A stretch of 64,000 nucleotides of DNA, taken from the NCBI GenBank assembly GCA_963798085.1, contig CAWCRS010000010.1, positions 32,001 through 96,000 of the forward strand, read 5' to 3'. The first letter of the stretch is position 1. Every line of letters begins with the position of its first letter. The notes below the pieces were generated by a model that did no database searches, was not told where the DNA came from, and worked only from the letters and a program-made list of their open reading frames with translations. The position numbers and the translations under genes are program-made. Of this stretch, positions 13,119-19,040 are shown piece by piece. The stretch is from an uncultured Gemmatimonadales bacterium (GTDB taxonomy: Bacteria; Gemmatimonadota; Gemmatimonadetes; Longimicrobiales; RSA9).

Positions 13119-14366
13119 TTACCCGCCGGCGATCTCCCTGACTCCCTCCACCAGCCTTTCGACTTCCTCGGCGCTGCTGTAGCAGGCGCAGCCGGCTCGG
13201 ACCAGGCCTTCATCGCCGAGACCCAGCCGCTCGACGACCGTGGCGGCGTAGAAGTCGCCGTGTGATACGAACACGCCTCGCGCCGCCAGGCGGCTGGCCA
13301 CTTCGGAGGAGGGCACACCCTCCAGGGTGAAAGCCGCGGTTGGTGTGCGCGGCCGGTCGGGCGGCGGGCCGTAGCGTCGCACCCCGCGCACTTCGCCCAG
13401 ACCCTGCCACATGCGCGCGAACAACGACTGCGAGCGCGCGTGCAGCGCGTGGAACGCCGACTCCAGCCTCGCCCTCCGGTCTGCGCCTGTGCCCAGCCCT
13501 GCGAGGAAATCCACGGCGGCGGCGGCACCGGCCATGCCTTCGTGATTCTGTGTGCCGGTCTCGAGCCGTTCGGGACCTTCGTTCGGTGCGGGCTCGAGCT
13601 TCGGCACATCGAGCAGCGGGACCTGTGCGGCGCGCACGGCGAGCACACCCACGTGCGGACCGTAGAACTTGTAGGCCGAGCAGGCCAGCATGTCGCAGTC
13701 GAGCGCGTGGAAGTCGGGAAGCACGTGCGGCGCGGAGTGCACCGCATCCACGAAGCTCAGCGCGCCCACGGAGCGCGCCATCGCGATGATGGCGGGAAGG
13801 TCGTTGACCGTGCCGAGCGCGTTCGATGCGCCGCCAATCGCAACCAGGCGAGTACGCCGGCCAATGCTGCGCTCCAGGTCGGCGCGCTCCAGCTCGCCGG
13901 TGGCCGGGTCGAGGCGCACGTGACGCACCTGCACTCCGCGCTCGCGCTCGAGTGCGGTCCAGGGCGCAATGTTGGCGTGGTGGTCGAGCTGCGTGACGAC
14001 AACCTCGTCGCCCGCACCCCACACCCGGCCCAGCGCTCTCGCCACGTGGAAGGTGAGCGTGGTCATGTTGGGCCCGAAGGCGATCTCGCCCGCGTCGGCG
14101 CCCAGAAAATCCGCCATGGCCGCGCGCGCGTCCGCTATGATCGCATCGGTCTCGGCGCTGGTCGGGTAGTGCCAGTGGGTGTTGGCGTTGTGATGGTAGA
14201 GGTATTCGGCCATTGCATCGACCACGACGCGCGGCGTCTGCGTGCCGCCCGGGCAGTCGAAGTACGCCACCGGCCGGCCATTCTCGCGCCGCTCCAGCGC
14301 GGGAAACTGCGAGCGGATCTGCTCCAGCAATGCCACGCGCGCGGCTGGCGCGTTCACGGTAGCCAT
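13119..14366 (-). CDS. Cysteine desulfurase-like class V PLP aminotransferase
   Basis: FDCPGGTQ, DHHANIAPW, DAVH, SAYKFYGPH (PLP Lys) and ETGT. Confidence 0.9.
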   Translation of the reverse strand: MATVNAPAARVALLEQIRSQFPALERRENGRPVAYFDCPGGTQTPRVVVDAMAEYLYHHNANTHWHYPTSAETDAIIADARAAMADFLGADAGEIAFGPNMTTLTFHVARALGRVWGAGDEVVVTQLDHHANIAPWTALERERGVQVRHVRLDPATGELERADLERSIGRRTRLVAIGGASNALGTVNDLPAIIAMARSVGALSFVDAVHSAPHVLPDFHALDCDMLACSAYKFYGPHVGVLAVRAAQVPLLDVPKLEPAPNEGPERLETGTQNHEGMAGAAAAVDFLAGLGTGADRRARLESAFHALHARSQSLFARMWQGLGEVRGVRRYGPPPDRPRTPTAAFTLEGVPSSEVASRLAARGVFVSHGDFYAATVVERLGLGDEGLVRAGCACYSSAEEVERLVEGVREIAGG

Positions 14367-14488: not shown

Positions 14489-14523
14489 GAAAAGACGAAA
14501 CGGCCGCAACTGCTGCGACCGTT
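14489..14523 (-). terminator. Intrinsic terminator of sRNA candidate B
   Basis: AACGGUCGCA-GCAGU-UGCGGCCGUU followed by UCGUCUUUU. Confidence 0.7.
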
Positions 14524-14582
14524 CGCCTCGTCCGTAGCGCTCTCCCCGGAGTTCCCGCTCGCTACGGATCAACATCTGTCGC
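14489..14582 (-). ncRNA. Candidate sigma-54-dependent small RNA, copy B
   Basis: Hairpin UCCGUAGCG-AGCGGGAACUCCGGGGAGAG-CGCUACGGA (14531-14568) lies between a -24/-12 promoter and a terminator. Paralog of copy A. Confidence 0.6.
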
Positions 14583-14593
14583 GAATGCTTCAC

Positions 14594-14608
14594 GCACGAT
14601 CTTTGCCA
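14594..14608 (-). promoter_or_regulatory. Sigma-54 (-24/-12) promoter
   Basis: TGGCAAAGATCGTGC, exact GG-N10-GC spacing, 26 nt from the conserved hairpin. Confidence 0.6.
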
Positions 14609-14934
14609 TTCCTCGATTCATTTGTGCATTTCATTCTCTTGCTTCGAGTTGCCGCATCCACCCGAAAAACGCGGCGCGTGCCGCTCCGGAAACTTCTTTC
14701 GTTGCGCACCCCGCCGACGCGCCACCTTCTGCCCTCCCCCATGTCGCAACCGCGCTGTCAACCCCGTGGCGTCATCACGCCCGCCAGCCATGCTCAGTCG
14801 CACCGGACAAACGAGCCGCGACCTGTCCCCAGCCGTTCCCGTCCGCCCCGGAACATGGACCAGCCGCCAGGCGGATCGCCTTCCGCTCCTCCGCGAACTC
14901 ACCGTTCGCCAGACCAGCCGCACAAATGCCGCGC

Positions 14935-14967
14935 AAACAAAAAGAGCGACCACTCGCGTGATCGCCC
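14935..14967 (-). terminator. Intrinsic terminator of sRNA candidate A
   Basis: GGGCGAUCAC-GCGA-GUGGUCGCUC (GNRA loop, G-U pairs) followed by UUUUUGUUU. Confidence 0.8.
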
Positions 14968-15027
14968 TTTTCGTTCCGTAGCGCTCTCCCCGTTGTTCCC
15001 GCTCGCCACGGAAGACCATGTTGTATC
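14935..15027 (-). ncRNA. Candidate sigma-54-dependent small RNA, copy A
   Basis: Hairpin UCCGUGGCG-AGCGGGAACAACGGGGAGAG-CGCUACGGA (14975-15012). The A>G difference from copy B keeps a G-U pair only on the minus strand. Confidence 0.6.
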
Positions 15028-15038
15028 GGCCCGTGGAA

Positions 15039-15053
15039 GCAGCTTTTCTGCCA
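15039..15053 (-). promoter_or_regulatory. Sigma-54 (-24/-12) promoter
   Basis: TGGCAGAAAAGCTGC, exact GG-N10-GC spacing, 27 nt from the conserved hairpin. Confidence 0.6.
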
Positions 15054-15166
15054 GATTCTGCCCGCGCGCGCCAGACTCAACGCCAGCAATGGATTAGCCG
15101 TGTTTTGCGGGGCTCGCCAGCGGGTCGGGAACGCGCAAAGTTTTTCTGCCGTCCGCTCCTTTGTTC

Positions 15167-15958
15167 TCAGCGCGAGCGTGGGCGCCGCTGCTGCGCGGCC
15201 ATTTCCACCAGTCTGCGCAGTTCCTTGATCGGCTCGGGACTGTCATCGACCTGAAGCCGCAATACCACGTCATTGTGCAGCCAAACGCCGGCATCCTTCT
15301 TCACGATCAGCATGGCGGCGGACTCCATGCCGCGTTTGTCGCCGCCGGCCAGCTGACCTGCCTCGAGGGCGGCCAGCAACCGGAACGAGAGATGGCCGGT
15401 CGTCTCTTCGAAGGCCTTGACCATGCCATCCACGACGGCCGGCCCTGCCAGGATGTTGCCCTGCGCCGTGCAGAAGGTGCCCGCCTTCGAGCAGCGCTTG
15501 TCGCCGGCCCACGTCGTGGCCTGCGGTCCTGTGTAGGCGGCGGCAGTGCCCTTCGCGTCCATCACGGCGAACTGGCGGCCGAGCTTGGTCCAGTTCTTGG
15601 GGTCGGGATCGGGATCATTGTCCCAGACCTGCTTGATGATGTCCGCGGGAGCCATTCCCTTGCGCAGGAGCGCGATTGCCTGCGGGCCGTAGCTGACATC
15701 GACGATGGCCTGGGTGGCGACCGCACCCACGCCGGCTTCCGCCCAGAGCACGCCATTGCCCACCGAGAACACGCGCGACTGCACGGCGCCGCCGACCTCG
15801 CCGGTTTCCGGGTCGTAGCCCAGGATCGAGAACGTGGCGACGGGCGGCCACGGCATGCCGGGCTTCATGCCCGGGTGTTCGCGCACGGTGCTGCGGGGTG
15901 CGCCGCAGGCCAGCGTCAGCAGAGTGGCTGCGGTCGCGGAGCGGAGCGTGATCTTCAT
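15167..15958 (-). CDS. DUF1028 family (Ntn-hydrolase-like) exported protein/lipoprotein
   Basis: Lipobox-like TLAC, then ATFSI, VGAVATQA, QGNIL, GGDKRG and LQVDD. Confidence 0.88.
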   Translation of the reverse strand: MKITLRSATAATLLTLACGAPRSTVREHPGMKPGMPWPPVATFSILGYDPETGEVGGAVQSRVFSVGNGVLWAEAGVGAVATQAIVDVSYGPQAIALLRKGMAPADIIKQVWDNDPDPDPKNWTKLGRQFAVMDAKGTAAAYTGPQATTWAGDKRCSKAGTFCTAQGNILAGPAVVDGMVKAFEETTGHLSFRLLAALEAGQLAGGDKRGMESAAMLIVKKDAGVWLHNDVVLRLQVDDSPEPIKELRRLVEMAAQQRRPRSR

Positions 15959-17443: not shown

Positions 17444-19040
17444 ATGAGTGAGCCTGACGTGAAGGCCGCGCCGGCAGGCGGGCTCGCGTACAAGTGGAAA
17501 GTCCTGATCTCCGTCGTGTTCGGCGCCTTCATGGTGGTGCTGGATACGACGGCGGTGAACGTCGCGTTCCAGACTCTGCGCCGTGAGTATGCCGCCGGGC
17601 TGAGCGAAGCGCAGTGGACGCTCAGTCTCTACGTGCTGGCGCTGGGCATTGCGACGCCGGTCGCCGGTTTCCTCGCCGATCGTTTCGGCATCAAGCGCAC
17701 GTATATCATCGGGCTGGCCGGTTTCGTTCTCGGCTCGTTCCTCTGCGGCATTGCGCCCAGCCTGTGGCTGCTGGTGGCGGCGCGCGGGCTGCAGGGACTG
17801 AGTGGCGGCATGGCGCTGCCGCTGGGCTCGGCGCTGCTGCTGCGCGCGTTCCCGCCCGGCGAGCAGGGCAAGGCGCTGGGCCTGTTCGGTGTGGCCATGG
17901 TGTTCGCGCCCGCGCTCGGTCCCATTCTGGGCGGCGTGCTGGTGGACGCCGGACTCTGGCGCTGGATCTTCTTCATCAACGTGCCCATTGGCCTGCTGGG
18001 CGTGACGCTCGCATCACGGTTCCTGCGCGAGGAACGCAGTCACCGCGAGCATCACATGGACTGGATCGGACTGCTGTGCGGAGATGATCGGCTTCGGTGC
18101 GGTGCTGTACGCTGCGTCGCTCGCCGAAGTGCGCGGCTGGACGAATCCGGAGGTGGTACGCTGGTTCGCGATCGGTGGCGCGGGTCTCGCCGCGTTCGCG
18201 GTGGTCGAGCTGTTCGTGGCGAAGGATCCGCTGCTCGATCTGCGACTCTTCTCCAATCGCACGTTCATGGTGGCGTGCTTCGTGGGGTGGGTCACCGTGG
18301 TCGCGCTGTTCGGCGCCGAGTTCCTGCTGCCCGTGTACCTGCAGGCGGTACGCGGACGCACCGCGCTGCACGCGGGACTCATTCTGCTGCCCATGGCGGC
18401 AGCGGCCGGCATCGCGACACCGACGGCCGGCCGCCTCTATGACCGCATCGGACCCCGCGCCTTGCTGGTGGGCGGCTTTTCGCTGCTCGTGATCAACACC
18501 TGGCAGTTCTCGCAGCTCGACGGCGCGACACCCATCGCCTGGATCATCCTGCTGCTGATCCTGCGCGGCACAGCGCTGGGCATGAGTGTGCAGACGACAA
18601 TGGTCACCGCACTGTCCGTCGTTACCGGTCCGGCCCTGCCGCGCGGCGCCTCGCTGGTGAATGCGACACGCAACGTCGTGCAATCGATCGGCGTGGCCCT
18701 GCTGGCCACGGTGCTCGCGGCGGGACTGTCACCCACGACGCGGCGAGTGCAGCTGGCCGCGCAGTCGTCCGGGCTGGGCGGCGTGTGCGAATCCGTCGAA
18801 CCTGCCGGCGGCGGCGCGACCCGGCCGGCGAGCCCGCCGCCGTTTCCCGCTGATGTGCTGAGCCGCGCCTGCGACGAAAGCATTGCGGGCTTCAGCAACG
18901 CCTATCGGCTCACCTTCTATGCCGCACTGCTGTCACTCACGCTGGGCGCCCTGCTGCCCGGCTGGCCGGGCGAGTGGGGCGGCCGGAAGAGTGCCGCGCA
19001 CCACGAGCGCGACGCCGACGCCATGCAGCCGGTCGCCTGA
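17444..19040 (+). CDS. DHA2 (EmrB/QacA) MFS efflux permease; frameshift at ~18080
   Basis: LDTTAVNVA, GFLADRFGIKR, PALGPILGG, WRWIFFINVPIG and PLLDLRLF across two frames. Confidence 0.9.

Follow-up and report, generated by a model that had tools for sequence, protein, structure and literature searches.

Two tandem copies of a predicted small-RNA gene, apparently undescribed, that has a sigma-54-type promoter and is conserved in a family of the Longimicrobiales

Two minus-strand cassettes between a DUF1028 gene and a cysteine desulfurase-like gene

In the window, that is the whole stretch of 64,000 nucleotides analysed here, the sequence separating a DUF1028 gene from a cysteine desulfurase-like gene was found on inspection to hold two cassettes on the minus strand. 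Each is composed of a GG-N10-GC box followed by a 38-nt hairpin and a U-tailed stem. The features of the locus, listed along the minus strand, are:

15167..15958, minus strand: upstream neighbour, DUF1028 protein (PF06267; context)
15137..15173, minus strand: enhancer-like site(s) of copy A, type GAAnnnGCGCAAAAAGT (family positions about -123 and -143)
15072..15096, minus strand: IHF-like AT element of copy A (family pattern match)
15039..15053, minus strand: putative sigma-54 -24/-12 box of copy A, TGGCAGAAAAGCTGC (GG-N10-GC; family conservation)
14939..15027, minus strand: predicted RNA of copy A, 89 nt (folding and covariance model; start placed by sigma-54 spacing)
15012-14975, minus strand: P1 hairpin of copy A, with the invariant CGGGGAGA at 14992-14985
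14973-14939, minus strand: terminator of copy A (folding)
14690..14707, minus strand: enhancer-like site of copy B, at -125 (motif matrix)
14627..14651, minus strand: degenerate IHF-like region of copy B (matrix score 5.8; strict pattern unmatched)
14594..14608, minus strand: putative sigma-54 -24/-12 box of copy B, TGGCAAAGATCGTGC (GG-N10-GC; top combined score of the host genome)
14490..14582, minus strand: predicted RNA of copy B, 93 nt (folding, covariance model and terminator scan)
14568-14531, minus strand: P1 hairpin of copy B, with the invariant CGGGGAGA at 14548-14541
14529-14490, minus strand: terminator of copy B (terminator scan and folding)
13119..14366, minus strand: downstream neighbour, cysteine desulfurase-like protein (TIGR01976; context)

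The tandem arrangement had been described in a first-pass annotation of the window and was borne out by inspection, including the exact GG-N10-GC spacing of both boxes (15053-15039 and 14608-14594) and the identity of 35 out of 38 positions between the hairpins of copy A (15012-14975) and copy B (14568-14531). A repeat scan returned a single direct repeat of 45 nt (87%, spacing 444 nt). The two RNAs align at 64 of 95 positions as opposed to just 45 of 103 for the 100-nt flanks, in agreement with the earlier statement that the flanks are otherwise unrelated. Both terminators are U-tailed and differ in sequence, as had also been proposed, and that of copy A (14973-14939) has a GCGA tetraloop. 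The copy B terminator was the only one detected by a simple terminator scan; that of copy A is based on folding. Both predicted RNAs begin with a 5' leader ahead of the P1 hairpin. Folding z-scores were -5.5 and -2.8 on the minus strand versus -1.3 and -1.8 on the plus strand, so that the suggested preference of the structure for the minus strand held.

The core has exactly two exact occurrences in the 6.2-Mb host genome, and a covariance model found, after the two copies, a next match with an E-value of 0.51. With two copies only, each carrying a promoter, the cassettes are not REP-like. A 133-codon open reading frame overlapping copy A is without a Pfam match. Elsewhere in the window (17444-19040), an MFS transporter gene is split over overlapping open reading frames at 17444-18442 and 18084-19040, which is likely to represent a frameshift.

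Distribution, structure and promoter of the RNA family

Rfam yielded no known family for the window's RNA, and 27 locus scans covering related copies were equally negative; the best overlap with Rfam 15 was mir-703 on terminator A with 18.8 bits against a cut-off of 88. Relatives were first found by a core pattern in the host family, an uncultured family of the Longimicrobiales (Gemmatimonadota), and a first covariance model of the RNA alone was built from 20 copies of 16 genomes. It gave matches in 48 of 50 genomes of the host family, in none of 50 genomes of a second family and in two of 50 genomes of a third family of the order. On inspection, one host-family match (genome G154, devoid of core and promoter) and both third-family matches proved to be bare terminators, leaving true copies in 47 of the 50 sampled host-family genomes. 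Twelve of these 47 genomes had supplied training sequences while the other 35 had given none to the model. Copies number one to three per genome.

A second covariance model with 66 rows found no true copy in 146 genomes of the class and 149 genomes of the phylum outside the host family, in searches where few candidates were scored per genome and weak matches were lost. Four weak matches among the class genomes, in other families, were rejected as they had neither core nor promoter. The single true copy in another family (locus L128 of genome G232, one of 31 genomes of that family) may reflect transfer or a binning error. It was also the one true copy among 14 inspected candidates of a loose promoter-plus-G-run pattern, which yielded mostly chance matches in 301 genomes of the class. 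When named genome contigs were scanned with a pattern, 13 of the 80 loci listed, out of at least 119, scored above 50 bits. By their titles, twelve of them belong to Gemmatimonadota groups, five of these being Longimicrobiales, and the thirteenth is an uncultured bacterium; the remaining 67 were attributed to chance. A corresponding scan of metagenomes gave two true copies among 80 loci listed out of at least 118, both with the -24 TGG that the search pattern had not required, and no divergent form among those 80. Three pattern matches in viral contigs fell in one near-identical, protein-coding-looking stretch (15-16 bits, no promoter) and were rejected.

The predicted RNA consists of two stems. 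In an alignment of 65 distinct rows, pairing held in 97.8% of cells and two-sided changes occurred at 23 of 25 pairs, with both stems covarying; none of 500 shuffles was as high and slid controls reached 33-68%, a significance that is overstated because the rows had been aligned to the model itself and come from genomes that share ancestry. G-U intermediates are common in both stems. Every one of the 69 copies carries GGG and CGGGGAGA, with a spacer between them whose length varies; this count is biased because copies were chosen by a core-containing model and patterns. The closing pair G27-C56 never varies, and the 3' end is T-rich in 58 of the 69 copies. As a refinement of the first-pass annotation, the 20-nt loop more likely folds as a mini-stem of 2-3 bp with a variable loop, accompanied by an asymmetric bulge, GGGAGAG. 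Ensemble folding favours the mini-stem and leaves GGGAGAG (G48-G54) with a predicted unpaired probability of 0.76-0.98. The same 9-mer as in the RNA core, CCGGGGAGA, was seen on the sense strand of a 23S rRNA region (G000:C7:1585720), and its occurrence in the rRNA operon is probably due to chance.

Promoters were compared for 66 copies (73 listed matches minus four false ones, two duplicates and two without upstream DNA, plus L128). The promoter lay outside the covariance model. All 66 copies have GG-N10-GC with T at -14 and 64 have YGG-N9-TGC; as a control, the promoter pattern was found in 165 of 12,200 random 12-position windows (1.4%). The distance from box to loop is 49-54 nt in 56 of 66 copies, and in 88% of copies transcription would start on a G. 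Further upstream, an AA-N4-TT type element is present at -68..-45 in 57 of 66 copies versus 103 of 5000 control windows. The element, which also precedes other sigma-54-like boxes in the host genome, resembles the IHF consensus. A motif of the GAAnnnGCGCAAAAAGT type was allowed to fall anywhere from -156 to -109; its best position lies within -128..-121 for 58 copies and within -146..-142 for the other eight, that is, in two narrow windows 20 nt apart regardless of the upstream gene. Copy A matches the motif best at -146 and less well near -125. Of the 416 sigma-54-like boxes that precede called genes in the host genome, none has a higher-scoring site than copy B, with a motif matrix whose training set included copy B. 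No other promoter of the host genome clearly pairs a sigma-54 box with the -123 motif.

The host genome was found to encode rpoN and about 15 strong-scoring loci for sigma-54 activators. Judged from sequence, box, IHF-like element and enhancer-like site together have the layout of an activator-dependent sigma-54 promoter, to which an activator would bind. Family conservation and covariation, with the -24/-12 box conserved along with the stems, uphold the earlier proposal of selection on promoter, core and structure and support a new family of RNA genes of ~90 nt with a sigma-54 promoter and a predicted transcript. The unit is apparently a conserved, undescribed gene for a predicted regulatory RNA of ~90 bases that occurs nearly family-wide. 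Two sigma-54 activator genes of the host genome (G000:C7:343572-345112 and C3:770435-771416) look split into several frames, which may be due to sequencing error or decay.

Genomic context and relation to known small RNAs

The neighbours were surveyed in ~1.5 kb around 68 copies. Upstream lie nfo (31 copies), metK (6) or a cyclophilin and/or DUF1028 gene (8), and downstream a lipoprotein-like gene (22), a queD-like gene (18), a desulfurase gene (4), a histidine kinase gene (3) or hemE (2), at distances from the RNA of about 10 to more than 1000 nt. Most copies are co-oriented with the next gene, and in one genome (locus L044) the entire unit has been flipped relative to nfo as well as queD. 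With neighbours that differ between copies and one unit turned round on the spot, we read the unit as a free-standing RNA gene and not as an attenuator, in keeping with the earlier view that a cis-attenuator role was the less likely alternative. Given the same observations, the ancestral site is likely to have been nfo-RNA-(lipoprotein)-6S-like RNA-queD and the unit would move as a block. On contig C2 of the host genome the downstream gene order is kept without the RNA. A sigma-54 activator gene was not recognised in the ~1.5-kb flanks examined. In a tree based on a short alignment, two clusters with strong supports of 99/88 and 100/91 comprise, respectively, the A copies (4 rows) and the B copies (5 rows) of three genera, and on such evidence the tandem pair is old. 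A 95-nt unit is repeated in tandem at least eight times in the genome of a relative (G027:C5:623617-624321).

Another conserved non-coding RNA lies ahead of the queD-like gene and gave a weak 6S RNA score (21-30 bits versus a cut-off of 46.4). It was located by BLAST downstream of about 25 copies and is likely the divergent 6S RNA of the family, falling below Rfam's cut-off. Examples are:

L078:1693-1849: 6S-like RNA (weak 6S RNA score)
L050:2464-2626: 6S-like RNA (weak 6S RNA score)
G000:C2:146711-146866 (L464:212-367), minus strand: 6S-like RNA of the host genome (weak 6S RNA score)

By general kind, the unit falls among predicted genes for sigma-54-dependent, trans-encoded small RNAs: the box stands at a fixed distance, rpoN and activators are present in the host genome, and the unit has its own terminator, a conserved structure and no conserved reading frame and is independent of its neighbours. 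Qrr1-5 and CrcY/CrcZ are encoded by sigma-54- and activator-dependent sRNA genes that are often paralogous, and IHF is involved at sigma-54 sRNA promoters. GlmY/GlmZ are likewise sigma-54- and activator-dependent in the portions of the sources consulted. None of these, however, matches the RNA in sequence or structure, and among the protein partners of the Qrr/GlmY type Hfq was not found in the host genome (90% complete) nor RapZ in any of five genomes searched, where ProQ was not found either.

Pxr of Myxococcus and other Cystobacterineae has three stem-loops and adjoins the regulator genes pxrR/pxrK (PMC5684412, PMC5568312). In the sections of these papers drawn on here, it is, like our RNA, a lineage-restricted sRNA with a predicted sigma-54 promoter and an upstream enhancer region, it occurs as tandem paralogues with a promoter each, and its functional first stem-loop was counted as a further likeness. 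In contrast, the RNA described here has two stems instead of three, its neighbours are nfo, metK, DUF1028 and others and not pxrR/pxrK, and it has no Rfam match of any kind. Membership in the Pxr family was rejected since structure and neighbours differ. RsaI of Staphylococcus carries a G-rich region that resembles the RosA type. RosA of Bacillus subtilis binds C-rich sRNAs via G-rich regions; it is ~229 nt long, sigma-A driven and processed, and has RoxS and FsrA as proven partners (PMC8216469). As far as that description was consulted, RosA provides the closest model of mechanism, our RNA having two single-stranded G-rich regions predicted to be able to bind C-rich RNA, but the latter is ~90 nt long and sigma-54 driven.

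In Rfam and the parts of the Gemmatimonadota literature consulted, no described small-RNA family was found, and the phylum is unmentioned in the main texts of two GC-IGR surveys. We regard the predicted transcript as representing a well-supported, previously undescribed sRNA family within the known sigma-54 kind. By analogy with Pxr, Qrr and GlmY, the RNA looks like the main output of a two-component signal. Conserved sRNAs of Hfq-free bacteria mostly present C-rich anti-Shine-Dalgarno loops, and the invariant G-rich, Shine-Dalgarno-like display seen here is the rarer mirror case. Its 8-nt seed, its enhancer and its two old paralogues offer a handle on post-transcriptional control in a phylum with almost none known.

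Possible partners of the invariant G-rich core

That the locus holds two paralogous copies of a conserved, free-standing sRNA gene, the transcript being predicted, is in our judgement highly probable. As to its action, we tentatively favour, while holding it somewhat short of probable, that the invariant and exposed G-rich stretch of the ~90-nt sRNA pairs with C-rich RNA, a role that the first-pass annotation had also raised. A sigma-54 activator would bind near -123/-143, IHF would bend the promoter DNA and a G-started transcript would end at the intrinsic terminator. P1 would show GGGAGAG as a single-stranded bulge next to the mini-stem of 2-3 bp and its variable loop, and the Shine-Dalgarno-like stretch together with the second G-run might bind UCUCCCCG/UCCC-type motifs without Hfq. 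The outcome could be that an anti-Shine-Dalgarno sRNA is soaked up in a RosA-like manner, or that ribosome-binding sites are freed from C-rich leader strands. Pairing is preferred because an invariant, contiguous and open run of 7-8 nt on a covarying scaffold resembles a seed. However, an invariant, purine-rich, asymmetric internal loop with an invariant G-C closing pair suits protein binding equally well.

Among candidate targets, none of which proved conserved, the full site stands before a sugar-nucleotidyltransferase gene in one of 25 orthologues and before HU in one of 30, in both cases in the host genome only, while the site of the REC-ANTAR gene recurs in four of 30 orthologous regions and that of recA in neither of the two orthologues seen. 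Candidate sites also precede a cheW-like gene, mutL and a gene for a PrsR-like activator. In a survey of 495 orthologous 5' regions (292 genes), which covered a small part of the proteome with mostly single comparisons and rough gene calls, the seed complement was present in 25 regions versus 14 for the reversed control, and none of the 292 genes held it consistently. Weakly in favour of pairing, seed complements reach 1.4-2 times the intergenic expectation in host-genome leaders, but the background contains uncalled genes that confound this enrichment, and antisense words are equally frequent. A seed-SD-AUG pattern gave 21 matches in 16 of 31 genomes with a downstream gene common to at most two of them, and further target listings contained nothing recurrent by eye. 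Raw duplex ranking of targets was discarded as swamped by GC content. In a crude search of one genome for a C-rich partner sRNA, an orphan intergenic element (L357; G000:C3:266257-266382, plus strand) in which a hairpin with a UCCCC loop is accompanied by CCUCC and by a stem resembling a terminator was considered and rejected, having no match in 59 relatives.

It is possible, if rather doubtful, that the same sigma-54 RNA gene titrates an RNA-binding protein other than CsrA, for which the purine-rich 2x7 internal loop would be the binding surface. The constancy of the closing pair G27-C56 and of both G-runs around a variable loop is consistent with this, the extra copies in several lineages would fit dose-based titration, and an RNA partner was not found among the candidates tested. 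An RNA-binding regulator of the REC-ANTAR type is present in 45 of 46 family genomes. Against titration, no candidate protein could be tied to the RNA; RapZ and ProQ were missing from the results for all five genomes searched, the ANTAR dual-hexaloop motif lacks covariation support, and a k-turn was rejected since its standard register, judged by eye with the usual rules, misfits the covarying stem.

We consider it unlikely that the sigma-54 output RNA acts as a Shine-Dalgarno decoy that captures anti-Shine-Dalgarno strands (C-rich sRNAs, leader locks or the 16S tail) cell-wide without Hfq, ProQ or CsrA. If true, the RNA would be a family-wide global translation switch and not a single-target regulator.

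A cis-acting attenuator, whose terminator would be read through on a signal, for example when an ANTAR regulator binds a mini-hairpin in the terminator 5' arm, is decidedly unlikely. The co-orientation of most copies with the next gene would suit it. ANTAR targets, in the parts of the reports consulted, comprise two small hairpins with A1/G4 hexaloops, one of them in the 5' arm of the terminator (PMC3369931, PMC8164766), and a hairpin of 3 bp bearing a hexaloop of the RRCGGU type could arise in 43 of 69 copies at the position of ANTAR P2 hairpins (PMC3369931). However, pairing in this alternative hairpin does not exceed the expectation for independent columns (48/48/56 observed versus 52/47/56 expected) and copy A is without it; many ordinary terminators here (40 of 190) likewise contain CGGYCG; and the downstream genes and their distances differ, with one copy inverted. 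Identity as an ANTAR target RNA was rejected, the dual-hairpin arrangement being possible in 12 of 69 copies, the single hairpin lacking covariation and its arms being common in ordinary terminators.

That the exposed GGGAG is a decoy ribosome-binding site for the 16S anti-Shine-Dalgarno tail of free 30S subunits is scarcely to be expected. The 5-mers GGAGG, AGGAG and GGGAG rank with the most frequent ones ahead of start codons in the host genome, its 16S tail is the usual CCUCCUU, and the bulge is predicted to be open. Nevertheless, an AUG follows the G-run at Shine-Dalgarno distance in just 7 of 69 copies, the flanking GC-rich stems must fit the mRNA channel, and the stronger mimic GGAGG has not been selected.

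The titration of a CsrA-like protein suggested in the first-pass annotation fails, since csrA is present in 14 of 51 host-family genomes while the RNA is near universal (47 of 50). CsrB/RsmY/RsmZ are sponges with GGA triplets in a small RNA, and CsrA recognises ANGGA in hairpin loops. GGA triplets are shared by our RNA (2-4 in most copies), but they are few, ANGGA is absent from 51 of 69 copies, and csrA does not co-occur; it was not found in the near-complete RNA-bearing genomes G032, G013, G033, G036 and G108. A CsrA/RsmA sponge, largely refuted by this distribution, is thus very improbable even though the host genome has fliW and two csrA genes, assigned to their surroundings by eye:

G000:C7:653433 and C3:740565: csrA genes of the host genome, of which one belongs to the flagellar cluster and one adjoins a sigma-28-like gene

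Two csrA copies were seen in three family genomes. The view that the cassettes are a repeat, a mobile element or the remnant of a coding sequence, with no function as RNA, deserves next to no weight: tandem occurrence, movement of the unit between loci and the reading frame over copy A might suggest it, but there are two copies per 6.2 Mb and one to three per relative, covariation is rich in G-U pairs, the promoter is present in 66 of 66 copies, the frame is without a Pfam match, and the 69 copies have no conserved reading frame, loop lengths varying out of frame.

The leader of the REC-ANTAR gene (G000:C7:1788046-1788250, minus strand) often contains an RGGYC..GCGCC element, without an Rfam match, that runs into a U-tailed hairpin. 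It was located at:

L396, L397, L400-L406, L408 and L409: leader element upstream of the REC-ANTAR gene

This element looks like an attenuator and is possibly autoregulatory.
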